Assembly: GCA_963833985.1 (NCBI GenBank)
Contig: CAWIAD010000002.1
Span: 5,312,001-5,376,000 of the forward strand
Source of the DNA: an uncultured Planctomycetaceae bacterium
GTDB lineage: Bacteria > Planctomycetota > Planctomycetia > Isosphaerales > Isosphaeraceae
DNA: 64,000 nt
Direction: 5' to 3'
Below are positions 3,001 to 39,000 of the stretch, piece after piece. Position numbers: made by a program. Within the stretch, counting starts at the first letter, position 1; the number at the start of each line of letters is the position of its first letter.

Positions 3001-6000
3001 GAGACTCACATGAAGTCAAACCACCGATCGCGGTCACCGAGTGCCCCGGGAGGTTGCGAGAATGTAGCCTCAATAGGATCCAATGCGTTACACGCTGAGG
3101 TACCCTTGGGCCGCGAGGGCCGACCGGCCTGCCTTCGCTCAGTAAGCGACGTCAACGGTCTCCTCGCCTCTACAACCAGCCCGATCCACAGAACCACCCC
3201 GGGGCACGATCATAACAGAGACGCCCGAGCATGCGTCAAGATCACCAGGAACCACGCGTACCGACGCTCGATTCGGTCTTGGCTTGATTTCCCGGACTTC
3301 ACCGGTCCTATGACGGCAAAAGACAACCGATGGCTCAAACAAGACGCGGAATCCAAACAGATCAGAACCAGGTTCTGTTCAAGCCAAACTTAATGGGTCA
3401 TTTGCAGAATCAGACAGGCTTGGGTCGCTACCGTTCCTTTGTGCTCTTCGTGAACGCACCGATAATCACCCAGGGACGAGTCTCGTTACACCAGGGATGA
3501 AACTCAAAACTTGTACCTGGCGAACGGTTTCCGACCTATCGGCATGCCTCTAACTGCTTCGTCGGCCCTTTGTACTTTATCTCCGGCGGGAAATCCACCC
3601 AAATCAGATGATGTGACAAAAAGCACCAAGAACTTCACGCCGTCCACAACCTGATGTTGAAAAAAGTCTTCAGTGACAAGGATTCATAGCACCGTGCATC
3701 GTGAGCAGCGTGCACGGCTGCTCACTACGGGGAAGAGATTTCGGTGTCCCGCTTCCCGCATTGCGAGGGACATGTTCAGAACGGCGGTGGAACGGCCGCG
3801 TCTGGGAGCGAGGGAACTTCCCGGCTCGTCAATTCGACATCTCCGTCCAGTGGTGTGCGCAGGCGGATGCCGCGATAATGGGCAATCCGCTGGGGACCCT
3901 CACGGAACCGGCTCTTGCTGAGTTCTGGAATGGCTGCATGGAGGTCGCGACCGAAGGCCGGCTCGTCACCAATGGCGTCGCGGCCTTGCTCCTGGCACCA
4001 GCTTCGCCAGGCGTCGTAGAGTGCCGCGACTGACACCTGTTCACCGGCACCGAGGACACAACGATCGCGCAGAAACGCTCCGATGGGGCTGCCCAGGTCC
4101 TCCATCGCGGCCATGAGAGCGCGGCCCGATTGCGGCTGCAAGAACCGCCCCCGCTCCCTGAGGCGCTGCCAGCCCTCCAGGGCCCAGAGCAGGATGCCCG
4201 GCAGCTCCCGGAGCAACCGTTCGTACAGGCCCGTATCTTCGCGGTCGTAGAACGATCGGGTGAACCGCAGCAGGATGAGCCGGCTCGCCAGGGCCCCGCT
4301 GGCATCACGTAACCGCGGCAGCTCATTGGAGATGAGCACGAAGCGCGTGGGCAGCCGGCCCGTCCAGGCCGGCAAGTGTTTGCGATCGATGGTCTGGTCG
4401 TCCTCGCCGCTGATCGAGAGCAAGCATTCCACGATGGCGGCATTGTCGGGCCGGCTGGAAAGCCGGGCGTCCGGAAAGATGGCCACCGGTTTGTCGATCA
4501 GCACGGACAGCCCGAACGGCCGTGCCAGAGTCGAAAGGGTTGGATTCGCGACGTTATTCGCCCCCACGAGCGCCTTGAGCACCCGCGCGATGGTTCCCCG
4601 GCCCGACCGCTTCGGGCCCACCAGCATGGCGATCTTCTGCTGACGCGTGTCCGTGGTCAGCAGGTAGCCGAACCACTCCTGCAAGCAGGCAATGCTCTCG
4701 ACGTCGTCTTCCCAGATCTGCCGCAGGAACGCCAGCCATTCCGCGGGCTCGCTCGCTCCGGGCACGAAATCGTAGTCCAGGGCGAAGCCGTTGAAGAACT
4801 CCGGCGTCGCCGCCAGCGTGCATGGGCGGCCCTCCACAAAAGAGGGCAGGTGAACTAGCCCGTTGCGTGCTGGCAAGATCTCCTGGACGGGCCATGGTGC
4901 GGCCCCGGCCGCATCCGGGCGGCCCGCCACCCAGGCTGGCTGCCGGGGACACTCGCTGGTGGGCACGAGGACCAGCCCCGTGATGGCCTGGACCACGTCG
5001 CTCACCATGCGCCCGGTGACCGGGATGGGCCGGAGAATCCGCTGGACGCTCGGAGAGCCGGGAGAATCCTCCCGTTTATGAAGGCGCGCTTCCATCTCCG
5101 CCTTGTATAAACGGTCGAATTCGCCGGCGAGGAATTGCGAAAGCCGTGCGCGAACCTCACTCATGGGAAGCGTGCGGTAGGCACATCCATCCCATGAATA
5201 AAACAGATCGCGCCAGTACCGCAGTCCGATCCCTCCCGGAAACGTGAAGTGGGCGTCCAGGAAGAGACGGGCCAGGCGGTGCGGGTTGGTCTCCTGGCCC
5301 ACCGGGCAGACGACGCCAGCGGCCTGGCCCGCGCGCGGCCTGGCTGCGCGGCCGCCTGCCGGCAGGGACGGCGGCCTGCCCGCGGGCGGCGGTTTCCTGT
5401 CTGATCTGAGATATCCCCTGGCGCGATCGTCGGCCGTCTTGTCAGCGCTTCTGAGCTTGTGCTCCAGCTCCTTGGGGCCCCAGGGAGGCAAGCACCGCTG
5501 GTTCCATTCCAGGAGGAACGGCCGGGCCTCGTCGATGGAGAGCCCGAACCCCTTGACGAGCACGCAGGCGACGTGGAAGGTGCGGTCATGGCCGCGCTCG
5601 CCAGAGACGGCGGGGGGAATGCGGGACAGGTAGGTGGCGATTCGCCGCGGCAGGGTGGTCGAGCGGTCATCGTGCCGGAGCGGCCCGGCCGGGGTCTTCG
5701 CCGGGTGGGAACCGGTCTGATCCGGCAAGGCCGGAGTGGGCCGCCGGGTACGAAGCCACGCGACAAGATCGAGAGGCAAGAGGGGAAGGGCAGTTCGTGA
5801 AGCTCCGCCCGGCAGTGGCTCCGGGCGGCTGTTCTCGGGGTGCATGGTCATCCGCCGGCACGATCAATTCTTGCAGGTCTTTTCAGTTGCCTTGCAAGCG
5901 AGGACGGGGTTCATTGGCCTGTTCCCTTACCATCCAGAGTAACCGGACGCCAGGGCCGATCAGGTCTGGAGGAGCCTTTCGCCTTGAGCGTGCCGGGCAA

Positions 6001-36000: not shown

Positions 36001-39000
36001 AGGCTGGCAACGTGCGGGCCGCGAACGCTGGTGGGGCTGGCGGCCAGGATCGCCACGCGCGACCGGTTCTGATACACGACCTCCGTCTTCAGCAGCTTGC
36101 CAATGGCGGCCGCGTCGCCGCCCAGGGCGCCCCTGCCATCGACGATCGCCTCGGTGAGCGCCCGGTAGATCTGCTCGGACTGCGCCTTGGAACCACCCAG
36201 GATCCTGGTTTCGTGGAGCGGGTGGAAACGGCTCTTCAAGTGTGTGTCGATGGCCGAGAGAAATGACTTGCCGCTGCCGCGCGGGCCGTGCCAGAGTGCC
36301 AGAGAGGGTCGCTCCAGCACCTGCTGGCTGAACATCGCCAGCGGCGCGGAGTGCCCCACGCAGACCGGGCGGTCGGGAATGCGCACACCGGTGAACTGGC
36401 GGACCCAGTCGGCCAGCTCGGCGCTGCTGGCCGGCATGCGATTGCGGACCGCGTCAATCAGGCTCGGCAGGACCCTGGTCTCGTCCCAGCTCGAGAATCT
36501 GGCGGGCGAGTTTGTCATCGATGTCAACTGCATCACGGCTTGAGGGGTCCGCGGAGCCCGGCTTGCCGTCAAGCCGGGTCCAGATTTCCAGCATGGCCCG
36601 CAGGCTTCCTCTGTCGGTGAATTCCAGGAGTCCCTGCACCAGCCGGTCTTGCCAGGAGACTCCGTCGCTGCTTCGCTTGTTGAGGTGGTTCCTCAGGCGG
36701 AAGGTCAAGCTGCCTCGGGCGGGGACCTCACTCTGCTGCCTCCGGTCGTTCTCCGGGGCCTCAGCCGGGTCGTTGTTGAGCCATGAATCAAGTTGAGGAT
36801 CGGCCATCAGGGCACCGTCGAAGTGTCCGAGTTGTCCACGATGTGCCCGAGCTGCCGGATGATCCCCTCGAGCTGTTCCATCATCTCGTGCCGGTGCTTG
36901 TCATCCTCGTTCTGCTGCTTCTGGCTGTCTTGCAGCGACAGGAGCAGGCTGGCGAACTGACCCTGCTGGAAGGTTTCCTGCCGCTGGAACCGCTGGCGGA
37001 CCTCGCGGACCAGGGCGCGTGACCGCCGCTCAACTTGCCAGAGCTCGATGCTCATGTAGCCAAGAATGAGCGCCAGAAACACAAGCGCCCTGAGCTGCGG
37101 TGTGCGCTGCCGCCACCAGCCGAGCAAGTCATACCAGATGAATGTCCGCCTCGGATTCTTCATCATCAAAGTGAACCTCCGGAACCGCCGGCAGCGCCGC
37201 GACAGCACCGTGCGCTGCCTTGGCCCAGCCATACAGCTCACGCACGGCGACGCCGGACCGGCTGCTACGCAGCTTGATCCTGAGCATGGCGACCTCGTGC
37301 TCGCGCTGCTTCTGCCGGTCCGACCAGTAGTCCTTGATAAAGGCGGAGATCGCCGCGACCAGTCCCGCCCCGCCCAGCAGGAACGAGCCCGTGCCCACGG
37401 AGGTGTCCGTCGAGCTCGCCTCGGCGATCACCGCAGCGCCGGTGGCCAGCAATCCGCCCACGACGGTGAGTGTCCTCGAGGTGAGTTCTGGCAGAATGCT
37501 CATGACACGCTCCACCCTTCCCGGTGCTGAAACGAGATGAGTTCACGGAAGAACGTTCCAGACTCTTTCGGAGAAGAGCAACGCAAGACCTGCTAGCGAC
37601 AGCAGGACCAGCCATGCCAGGTCTCCATGGTCCATCCTCGGCACGAATCGTGGCATGGCCGGAGCCTGTGGTGAAATCAAGGTTTCCACGCTTTGACTTG
37701 CGGGGACGGATCCGCCGCATGGCTCGCGGAGGTCCCTGCCTGCGCCAGTCCTGTACGCCGGGCCGCGTACAGCCGCTCCCGGCGCTGCTTCCTCGTCTCC
37801 TTCACTCCCACGGCTGCCCTGACCGCGGCGGGCTTGCTCTCGGGACGCGGGTCGGTCCGGGGGTCGCGCTTCAGCGCTGGATGGTCGTCGAATCCCGACC
37901 GGGAACAGACCATGCAACAGAACACCGACCCGCGAGGGATCGGGCCGTGATGCGGACAGACCGATTGGGGGGTGAACGACCCGACCGGGAAAAGCGGCAT
38001 CAGCCGGGGCGGACGATCGCGTGCATCACCCGAGAGGCTGCGCACTGCGCCACTTGCCACCTCGTCCCGTGTGTGCAGGTCCCCGCTGAATCGGGTATTG
38101 CTGGAACGGGAGATCTGATGATTCGCTTTCTCCCGCGCTCGGGAGACCCCCAGCTGGATGCTGCGGCAACTGAGCCGTTCCTGCCTGGCGATCTCCTTGA
38201 TGCTCTTGCCGCAACGAACCTCTTCGAGCCAGGAAAGCTCGCGGCCCTGGCAGGCCACGGAACGCTGGGGCCTGCTCATGCCAGGTAAACCACGTGTACC
38301 GGCCATGTCGGTCGATCCTCAGCCGCCCGGCCACGATCGACTCTGCTCTCAGAATGCGCCAGGAATCTGGCTGATTTGCGTGAAAGACCTCCTAGTGGCC
38401 CATCACTCGTCTCTCAAGTTGTTATGCATCAAGAACTTGGACAAAAAGAAAAAAAACCGCCGGTGCGCAAAGAAAGGTGGCGATCTGGCGTCTTTGTGTC
38501 GCAGACTCAGAAGGGGGAGTGGCGCAATCTGGAATCTGGAATGACCTTATCTAACCAAGCCCGCCCGGCCCGGTCGCCTGCGCAGGCTCCCCTGAATCCG
38601 TCCGCCGATCTGATCGCTCAGGCCTCGTCCGCGCGCCCCGGCTGTCCTGATGGGGTTTCCACGGAGCGGGCCAACGGCAAGCTGGACGTCAGATGCACGC
38701 GTCCAAAGAGTGCCTGTCCGGAAAGGGCGGCGTCGGCGTGGCGACGCGGCCGCTTGCCGCCAGCGACCGGAACGGCCCGGGGCACTGACCAGGAAGCCGT
38801 TGCGGCCTCGTCCCAGTGCCCCGGCTGGCGGCACGGTACGACGACCCGCATCATGAACGCCGCGTGGCAGCCGCTCCCAGCCAGAACGAACAGGTGAAAC
38901 AGCTCATGCGAGCCGAAAACCCCTGGCAGCGGCACCGGCCAGCCTCGCAGGTTGATGAGAGCACCCATGCTGTAGAGAACACCCCCCAGCGGAAGCGGCA

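Follow-up and report, generated by a model that had tools for sequence, protein, structure and literature searches.

A long run of tailed-phage-like genes with no integrase lies in the genome of an uncultured planctomycete of the family Isosphaeraceae, within the 64,000-nucleotide stretch of DNA analysed here (the window), and raises the question of whether its host carries a prophage, the remains of one, or a particle of its own. A preliminary description had read it as a domesticated phage module, as expected of a gene transfer agent (GTA). The cluster is real and domesticated, and this part of the earlier reading is supported and strengthened by fixed sites, by descent that follows the host tree within blocs of related copies, by purifying selection, by the lack of an integrase, and by newly recognised signs of disarming. 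As to its job, we favour a non-excising, domesticated phage particle system that is most likely GTA-like in function, a reading to which we give about an even chance.

Gene content of the cluster

Thirty-nine ORFs are called between 3776 and 38306 of the window, 38 of them on the minus strand, and the ORF caller missed several genes recovered by homology (F4, F3, and the small terminase [TerS] candidate), so that the previous count of about 41 co-oriented genes is right (Table 1). The PHROG matches reported earlier for the large terminase (TerL), portal, scaffold and major head protein (the last at 9.2e-17) were reproduced, as was the host-like G+C (0.659 in the cluster, 0.648 in the contig). 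These matches, those to Pfam, and the tube and hub folds give a caudoviricete-derived, tailed-phage-like protein set, known from genes alone. Head genes are the most constant part and no sheath gene was recognised, which sets the cluster apart from tailocins and contractile injection systems. F4, a conserved protein at the neck position, persists even where the tail is lost, and F3 is the last gene retained in tail-less copies at the second chromosomal site (site B, see below). The F9/F14/F45 frameshift presumably yields a tail chaperone, as in lambda G/GT. The fibre module is highly variable, with pectate-lyase-like, beta-helix and esterase domains, and its 1458-aa protein has one module in common with the capsid.

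Table 1. Features of the cluster and its flanks, read from the left end of the element (high coordinates)
Feature	Position	Strand	Evidence or remark
HlyIII-family membrane protein, host flank, left end	38618..39514	-	PF03006; same flank G001, G002, G008, G009
A+T-rich promoter-like region	38330..38520	-	partly alike across site-A genomes
F41, HTH + Cys/His-rich, putative activator, first gene of element	37677..38306	-	weak Sigma70_r4_2/GerE hits
F21 + 119-aa protein, two small membrane proteins	36807..37503	-	
Small-terminase candidate, DUF5681-like C-terminal half without N-terminal GxSGNPxG-type motif	36454..36807	-	position overlapping terL
Large terminase (TerL)	34929..36518	-	phrog_2 1.6e-12; Walker A, Walker B, nuclease aspartates intact (alignment)
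Portal, frameshifted	33238..34883	-	phrog_145 1.8e-32
Scaffold protein	32388..33134	-	phrog_206 7e-11
Major capsid protein, SU10 type (SU10_MCP)	31140..32294	-	PF17236 7e-41; phrog_1328
F22, F17 (Ig-like, frameshifted), F4 (226 aa)	29172..31035	-	function by position only
Variable fibre/surface module: F23, F15-like 222 aa, split esterase, 261 aa, F8 (fn3), 1458-aa protein	20887..29235	-	
F3, conserved tail-terminator-position protein	20414..20869	-	function by position only
Tail tube protein	19946..20362	-	model pLDDT 81.7; siphophage tail tube best match TM 0.63, E 1.7e-4
Inserted membrane-protein gene(s)	18010..19709	-	absent from relatives read
F9, F14, F45 extension in second frame, tail chaperone position	17088..17945	-	
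Short tape-measure-position ORF, 309 aa	15979..16908	-	conservation limited to C-terminal helix
Tail-tip genes F7, F11 (Ig_J weak), F12 (frameshifted)	13968..15916	-	
Baseplate hub, gp27/Mu gp44/VgrG-like fold	11796..13934	-	model pLDDT 81.6; Foldseek E 1.3e-9
F13 pair, small ORFs, F31, two pentapeptide-family genes	7738..11755	-	
Sigma-70 family factor	6660..7490	-	conserved at site A
F54, probable primase	5911..6672	-	Atlas cluster rank 19, RepB_primase on 18% of members
P4/D5-type SF3 helicase, Walker A Lys -> Arg	3776..5728	-	TIGR01613
M32 carboxypeptidase, host flank, right end	535..2067	-	frameshifted in this assembly

As claimed before, gene calls and PHROG/Pfam profiles reveal no integrase within the cluster, nor does it contain a tRNA or an Rfam match, and both ends gave no att-like or iteron-like repeats beyond chance-level pairs. 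Neither the integrase and attachment sites nor the plasmid maintenance genes of an active temperate prophage are found. A serine recombinase at 56932-58806 was rejected as the integrase of the element, as it lies 18 kb off within a group II intron. Upstream of F41 there is similarity across genomes sharing this site, with no clean motif established. Four genes are split or frameshifted in this assembly (portal, F17, F12 and the esterase gene), probably through assembly errors; in the portal, a G run near 34530 is one base shorter than in nine relatives.

In relatives a peptidase cassette (F18-F16-F20) lies upstream of the two small membrane-protein genes. It is missing in the window, and the three genes are absent from the entire genome, so this copy may be partly degenerate. 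All four tailed site-B genomes read carry the cassette at a separate locus, between the same HAD and kinase genes in three of the four, and more than 1 Mb separates the loci over which the site-B element is divided.

Chromosomal sites, blocs and selection

Of the 121 family genomes, 90 have the capsid gene, usually as a single copy; it is in 89 of the 120 besides this one, in 37 of the 47 of high quality and in 6 of 13 in the genus, in agreement with the earlier counts, and no capsid was found in the seven of 13 congeners said to lack the cluster. Confinement to Isosphaeraceae holds for close homologues but not for the capsid type, as distant SU10_MCP capsids of the same Pfam family, nearly all single-copy, turned up in 48 of the 400 genomes that were sampled from the phylum's other classes. 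Gene order is conserved in the cluster regions read, and the M32 flank of the window's site (site A) recurs in eight other cluster-bearing genomes read. Site B is empty in this genome, with the EgtD and Trm112 genes about 60 bp apart, and a single change between sites suffices on the host RpoB tree. Integrase homologues adjoin four mobile copies (one of them present a second time as its IMG/VR record) and the cluster of G043, and one lies 20 kb from that of G026; of the 54 fixed-type regions, the remaining 52 have none within the stretches read. Seven copies in family genomes are close mobile relatives, and so are 16 of the 20 IMG/VR contigs previously listed as carrying relatives, the other four being chromosomal site-A fragments. 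On the genomic side, the lack of integrase and att sites, the fixed sites and the second locus in site-B hosts fit full endogenisation.

The earlier view of one module at two sites stands as to the sites, but there are three blocs (A1, which includes the window, A2, and B). The capsids at site A reject a single origin (AU test, p 1.2e-6), and A1 capsids are intermixed with those of free phages in the capsid tree (about 72% identical to a prophage capsid). A1 and A2 share 48% identity in the capsid, 69% in the peptidase and 61% in the helicase, and sequence comparison suggests that virion genes at site A were exchanged with free phages by recombination whereas flanking genes were not. Within blocs the splits in common with the RpoB tree number 5 of 9 (A1), 6 of 8 (A2) and 15 of 24 (B), against a random mean of 0.24-0.27, with no strong conflict inside blocs. 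Capsid and RpoB distances correlate at r=0.12 over all blocs and 0.47-0.73 within them. Descent is therefore mostly vertical within blocs, with co-diversification, and not across blocs for the capsid; earlier Mantel tests across genera failed because the blocs acquired or swapped virion genes separately.

Purifying selection, as previously proposed, is evident (omega 0.01-0.23 where dS is 3 or less; the many saturated pairs above that were set aside, and the estimator is our own script, not validated against PAML), and a phage pair is likewise low (0.05-0.06). Hosts with intact assembly lines differ by 9-14% in RpoB, with synonymous sites near saturation and omega low. Capsid and TerL are slightly cheaper in amino acids in fixed copies (uncorrected p 0.010 and 0.017, with kin not independent and G+C differing between groups); portal, F4, hub and tube of fixed copies lack this signature.

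Packaging, replication and tail genes

We take the DUF5681 protein as a TerS candidate from its gene position and from general background on the family. Its N-terminal motif is found in none of 13 fixed copies versus four of five phage copies, a change that may be one ancestral event. A predicted TerS-TerL complex scores 0.45 against 0.25 for the best control (partner pLDDT at least 53, at least 48% of contacts shared) and weakly supports the assignment; in calibration, just 18 of the 157 solved complexes scored 0.60 or under, as did the two mismatches of 215 that passed. The TerS of the Rhodobacter-type agent RcGTA likewise has no N-terminal DNA-binding part, according to part of PMC6854486, paralleling the fixed-copy candidates.

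TerL is Cys-rich, and neither cultured phages nor solved chains offer a close match: the cultured-phage collection gave matches at 22-25% only, and sequence searches of TerL, hub and peptidase profiles against solved structures gave nothing significant. Membership of the RcGTA family (Rhodogtaviriformidae) calls for an RcGTA-like TerL and capsid; here the capsid is SU10-type and the TerL profile matches no solved chain. Each of the 27 site-B regions that extend as far as TerL has it at full length. At site A the cognate TerL was lost, cut or replaced in at least five separate events. Genomes lacking it carry stand-alone TerS-TerL pairs of a second family (six of six loci read are without portal and capsid), and in G062 that family sits in place at site A, so packaging may come in trans.

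The helicase Walker A motif has Arg in 10 of 10 site-A copies versus Lys in seven of seven off-site copies (Arg in 5 of 36 more distant helicases), which may likewise reflect one ancestral event, and the gene was lost at least three times. It was not found in five IMG/VR records, all of them fragments. The primase noted earlier at one end, and then counted against the GTA reading, is present but not incidental: primase-helicase adjoins the tail hub in 15 family genomes and is ancestral at site A, with the Walker A substitution. Site B has no replication genes; site A has the putative primase and the helicase with its altered Walker A. Run-off replication as in Bartonella is weakened by this substitution.

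The tape-measure slot spans 0.5-2.4 kb at confirmed fixed sites versus 2.7-6.7 kb in prophages, and its frame has stayed open even though the middle part defies alignment. A tail hub was found in no more than 68 of the 121 genomes, and tail-less heads persist at site B in 11 genomes in which Trm112 follows F3. The scaffold core, a proxy for head size, is not shortened, length differences being confined to its disordered N-terminus. Contigs of related phages, 31-38 kb long, have completeness ratings of only 42-68%, and their genomes probably exceed 38 kb, so that the head may hold the whole 35-kb element and may not, at site A, be too small for its own genes.

Readings of the cluster and its relation to known systems

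In the reading that we favour, a temperate siphovirus of Isosphaeraceae would have been grounded at site A in an ancestor common to one host clade; a relative of it would have been grounded at the second site in the remaining hosts. The host would have retained genes for the head, a short non-contractile tail with variable fibres and the packaging motor, together with a putative activator, a sigma factor and, in most relatives, the peptidase/membrane-protein cassette. Upon induction a few cells would assemble heads, into which TerL would package host DNA with little sequence preference because TerS has presumably lost its DNA-recognition end; the helicase would no longer amplify the element, and cells would lyse, their particles carrying DNA to relatives for recombination. 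The sites, within-bloc descent, selection, missing integrase, tape measure, TerS, helicase and second locus are observed; induction, host-DNA packaging, lysis and delivery are steps that we infer. Speaking against this reading are the repeated TerL losses at site A, the tail-less copies at site B, the absent or decayed clusters of close relatives, the missing cassette and four split genes of this copy, the kinship of A1 capsids with phages, a head that may be big enough for the element, and a phage pair whose omega is just as low. A broader version, plausible though short of probable, is that one phage lineage was tamed two or three times into working GTAs, the first in Planctomycetota, with living genomes displaying the stages: intact prophages; a grounded form with disarmed helicase, truncated TerS and virion genes that free phages still refresh (this window); stand-alone terminases borrowed from another family; and minimal, two-locus or tail-less heads still packaging DNA.

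The particle could instead have another job (killing competitors, as PBSX does, decoying phages from receptors, or carrying enzymes or adhesins), with packaging incidental and dispensable. Capsid and tail genes remain under selection in G032 and G066, which lost the cognate TerL (omega 0.02-0.09), and the tail-less heads and the domains of the variable fibre module also speak for it; but TerL is full-length in every site-B region that extends to it, the stand-alone pairs and the G062 replacement could supply packaging in trans, and no sheath, toxin or immunity gene was recognised, leaving this reading unlikely. We regard as unlikely a selfish grounded prophage that does not excise, packages itself with its flanks, and spreads or is repaired by homologous recombination among close relatives. 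Such spread would mimic vertical descent and purifying selection, and the primase, helicase, sigma factor and peptidase cassette retained at site A, the swapping of virion but not flanking genes, and a head that may be big enough would suit it; the Walker A substitution, repeated helicase loss, lost TerS motif, and a site-B element without replication genes and split in two argue otherwise.

Losses of the whole module, TerL, tail or peptidase cassette (G005 has a decayed copy, G009 a clean deletion of virion genes that leaves F41, pentapeptide and sigma genes) could point to a slowly decaying relic, with selection on single genes such as regulators or receptor-blocking/surface proteins and the particle no longer built. 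This is very unlikely given whole assembly lines kept intact at low omega across such divergent hosts, and a tape-measure frame open despite its unalignable middle. That active prophages of an ordinary family keep entering these two sites is highly improbable: mobile close relatives exist and the three blocs point to at least two acquisitions or swaps, but the fixed copies have no integrase, att repeat or tRNA, their trees agree with the host's inside blocs, their loci are split, and four of the IMG/VR contigs are chromosomal.

As set out in part of PMC9662315, a GTA is a caudoviricete-derived, tailed-phage-like particle that packages mostly random host DNA and delivers it, is endogenised, often over several loci, and mostly vertically inherited, has a head too small for its own genes, and has lost replication. 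The cluster resembles RcGTA in its single-copy, vertically inherited head and tail genes, in its short tape measure, in its genes lying over several loci (same source, in part), and in a tail tube fold that weakly matches the GTA tube chains 6toa/6tba. Unlike RcGTA, it derives from another phage lineage (SU10-type capsid, Cys-rich TerL) and falls into three blocs, exchanges genes with living phages, includes forms without a tail or without TerL, and has its own sigma factor and helicase. The Bartonella GTA (Bartogtaviriformidae), in the account drawn from part of PMC2697382, similarly conserves a phage-derived helicase with its particle genes, and particles of some species are tail-less (here tail-lessness is known from genes alone); its Twinkle-like helicase sits at the amplification peak, whereas the SF3 helicase here has the Walker A substitution, is often lost and is absent at site B. 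The Brachyspira GTA (VSH-1/BhGTA) has a putative terL outside the particle cluster (PMC9662315, in part), which the stand-alone pairs may match, although synteny is kept here and not in Brachyspira. The ancient Sphingomonadales orthologous prophage and grounded or cryptic prophages are likewise order- or family-wide phage clusters at a shared site; the passages used from these papers invoke cargo genes or immunity (PMC5381585, PMC6379469), whereas assembly and packaging genes are conserved here. Formal GTA classification covers Rhodobacterales, Bartonella and Brachyspira, with planctomycetes unmentioned in the parts of PMC9662315 used, and the literature searched, mostly main texts of open papers, reports neither a planctomycete GTA nor this cluster, which supplementary prophage tables may list.

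The route from phage to GTA has so far been inferred from end products. As fixed copies coexist with close mobile relatives, the proposed taming steps (TerS losing its specificity, replication being lost, the tail becoming shorter, and the genes dividing over loci) are directly comparable and open to testing in cultured strains. Heads that lack a tail but have an intact motor, and tailed particles with no terminase of their own, would widen the range of domesticated phage particles, and if DNA is transferred, the cluster would be a route of gene exchange and a possible genetic tool for planctomycetes.

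Composition of the cluster

The minus-strand block comprises ~41 genes (39 called, of which 38 are co-oriented, and the rest added by homology), which bears out the 41 co-oriented genes of the preliminary description, and has a G+C of 0.659 against 0.648 for the contig. The terminase, portal, scaffold and capsid matches reported there were returned again by a repeat PHROG/Pfam search, and the cluster proved to be without an integrase, as had been stated, in both gene and profile searches; it also contains no tRNA and, in a repeat search at both ends, no att-like repeat. The tail tube and baseplate hub are recognized by predicted fold, and because no sheath gene was recognized in the cluster the tail is likely short and non-contractile. 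At the far end are two pentapeptide genes, a sigma-70 factor, a probable primase (F54) and a P4/D5-type helicase. A second, distant F54 homologue (33%) lies on G000 C2, ~1.68 Mb before the window. Several relatives carry glycosyltransferase and methyltransferase genes downstream of the tail genes.

Features of the cluster and its surroundings in the window
Feature	Position	Strand	Remarks
Head-tail gene block	3776-38306	-	candidate gene transfer agent
PEP-CTERM surface-protein gene	2247-2927		close to one element end
Baseplate hub	11796-13934	-	gp27/Mu gp44-type; predicted fold
Tail tube	19946-20362	-	predicted fold
Insertion in large terminase (TerL)	35640-35830		conserved, Cys/His-rich, probably zinc-binding; separates ATPase and nuclease domains
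PEP-CTERM surface-protein gene	39639-40580		close to the other element end
AAA ATPase and downstream ORF	52248-54286		inserted beside rsmH; ATPase of low G+C, AAA_21, weak PtuA-like match; ORF uncharacterized; possible defence module
Group II intron	56414-60371		Rfam D1-D4 and 3' domains
Reverse transcriptase gene	59135-59833		inside the intron
Large serine recombinase gene	56932-58806		inside the intron, after the reverse transcriptase gene

Four genes of the window copy are split (portal, F17, F12 and an esterase gene), and the portal has a G run one base shorter than in nine relatives. Testing 45 orthologues in the assembly revealed frame changes in 8, including the housekeeping M32 flank, although some of the eight are cluster genes or multi-domain proteins, and from these sequence comparisons assembly error appears the likelier cause of the split cluster genes.

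Distribution, two sites and three blocs

The capsid gene is present in 90 of 121 Isosphaeraceae genomes (37 of the 47 high-quality ones) and the tail hub in fewer, 68. Cultured carriers include the named records Aquisphaera insulae JC669 and Paludisphaera soli JC670, whose capsids are close. When a 33-row capsid profile was searched against 400 genomes sampled from the phylum, no same-class genome matched, and the matches in other classes, in 48 genomes and nearly all single, were all distant (E no better than 1e-40); the one such capsid scanned is SU10-type too. One of the 48, a complete genome of another class (G292, L235:9700-13600), has an SU10-type capsid and scaffold with a few small genes, surrounded by host genes.

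We read 61 family capsid regions, including the window, and 20 IMG/VR loci. The former comprise 26 type A, 28 type B and 7 mobile-type regions, the last assigned by an adjacent integrase (G098, G092b, G091b, G079a) or by context and tree position alone (G052b, G016, G048); the IMG/VR contigs divide into 4 fragments of site A and 16 apparent phage relatives. In prophage relative G052b (L040:3690-5936) the head and neck genes flank one for a 748-aa protein whose C-terminal domain is an ADP-ribosyltransferase, and in the free-phage relatives L068, L069, L077-L079, L065, L067 and L073 the portal gene follows the capsid gene rather than preceding it.

Type A regions are ordered F41 (a putative activator), F18, F16, F20, small terminase (TerS) candidate, virion genes, F31, pentapeptide, sigma, primase and helicase, with the M32 gene then following in nine regions from five genera (site A); the remaining type A regions reach the left flank only or neither, G028 and G043 being without an established site. 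Type B clusters lie between EgtD/PFK and Trm112 (site B), with 20 of 28 reaching one flank and 8 placed by layout and capsid clade. In the RpoB tree the type A hosts form one clade (support 99) and every type B host falls outside it. Site B is empty in the window genome (EgtD-Trm112 gap of ~60 bp), and in G098 and G107 it also lacks the cluster. G107 has a phage remnant (L246:800-12700) with the peptidase cassette, an HTH gene, a sigma factor and a fused Prim-Pol/SF3 helicase of canonical Walker A; neither capsid nor TerL was found in that genome.

We distinguish blocs A1 (the genus of the window genome and g48), A2 (other type A hosts) and B (type B hosts). Packaging-head trees share 5 of 9 splits with RpoB in A1, 6 of 8 in A2 and 15 of 24 in B (random mean 0.24-0.27), and within blocs no conflict is strongly supported. 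Capsid Mantel r is 0.47, 0.59 and 0.73, respectively, but 0.12 over all; for TerL the A2 test, on 6 genomes, does not reach significance. These comparisons exclude G008 (partial RpoB) and include kin that are not independent. A single clade of A1 and A2 capsids is rejected (AU p 1.2e-6), and A1 capsids intermix with mobile copies. Because A1 and A2 are as alike as members of A1 in peptidase (69%) and helicase (61%) but not in capsid (48%) or scaffold (28%), site A is old, its virion genes having been exchanged with free phages at least once. For bloc B the simplest account is a capture of its own.

Signs of disarming, and losses

The tape-measure slot spans 0.5-2.4 kb at confirmed fixed sites versus 2.7-6.7 kb in prophages, the type A regions of G043 and G028 having 2.9 and 3.2 kb, and the fixed-copy ORF at this position (215-406 aa) is conserved only in a C-terminal helix. 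The ORF overlapping terL in fixed copies matches the second half of DUF5681 alone, several weakly, whereas phage homologues match the first half; that of the window has no Pfam match yet clusters with fixed-copy ORFs that do. A GxSGNPxG-type motif is present in 4 of 5 phage copies and in none of the 13 fixed copies aligned. From their gene position we infer that DUF5681 proteins are TerS; PMC8954984, the single paper found, lists one solely in a virion proteome. The predicted complex of the candidate with TerL scored 0.45 against 0.25 for the best control, a slight indication of interaction. Site B has no such ORF overlapping terL, and the HTH gene F39 lies upstream of terL in many copies.

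The helicase lies within ~12 kb of the hub on the same contig in 15 genomes of six genera. Among the copies read, all 10 at site A have G-R-G-T as their Walker A motif and all 7 off-site ones have G-K-G-T; among database homologues the closest have Arg in 83 of 84, and the next 36 include 29 Lys, 5 Arg and 2 that were not parsed. In Walker A motifs, such a Lys-to-Arg change usually blocks ATP hydrolysis.

By its motifs (plus an Atlas lead) F16 is a papain-like peptidase, and since small membrane-protein genes adjoin, it may act in lysis. F16 and F18 lie away from the cluster in all four tailed type B genomes read, flanked by shared HAD and Ser/Thr kinase genes in three of them and more than 1 Mb away in G118 and G052; the window genome lacks F18, F16 and F20 in a genome-wide search.

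Cognate TerL is missing from the type A regions of G011, G032, G066, G043 and G028; in G046 and G030 it is cut, and in G062 a Terminase_6N-type protein takes its place. On the host tree this requires at least five changes. The second, Terminase_6N-type TerL family is located elsewhere in these genomes, and could possibly supply packaging in trans; at none of the six stand-alone loci read is there a portal or capsid gene within 4.5 kb, most have a small upstream gene, and G028 and G029 share flanks. Large genomes of the type A host clade carry several copies (L236-L241). Eleven genomes have a tail-less cluster at site B, in which Trm112 follows F3 (tail-terminator position); no hub was found anywhere in these genomes, and at least two changes are implied. 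Within the genus of the window genome the capsid was not found in 7 of 13 genomes; the copy in G005 is decayed, the deletion in G009 leaves F41 and the pentapeptide and sigma genes in place, and M32 has no cluster gene next to it in G010. By RpoB, G005 and G010 are the nearest relatives of the window genome.

Interpretation as a possible gene transfer agent

Restricted to dS of at most 3, pairwise omega lies at 0.01-0.23 (0.02-0.14 for the window genome), calculated with our own GY94 script for 20 pairs with many cells saturated. A phage pair is equally low (0.05-0.06), so low omega counts only jointly with the lack of excision genes. We consider an active prophage very improbable, mobile relatives notwithstanding, and a relic improbable. 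A selfish element that packages itself in place, retaining a primase and helicase of its own, is somewhat less doubtful but still unlikely, the site-A helicases having the altered Walker A. A particle with another function, for which the recurrent losses of TerL and tail speak, is a slightly stronger but likewise unlikely alternative.

Gene transfer agents (GTAs) are defined by six features in PMC9662315, three of which the cluster shows at the genomic level. A further one, a head of insufficient capacity for the cluster's genes, may be absent at site A, as related phage contigs of 31-38 kb are rated 42-68% complete. The cluster is not a member of the RcGTA family. Our literature searches turned up no paper describing a planctomycete GTA or this cluster, and PMC7947584 mentions no more than a Zavarzinella prophage with an RcGTA-related TerL. 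We regard domestication in the broad sense as highly probable, and put at about an even chance that the cluster works in GTA-like DNA transfer.
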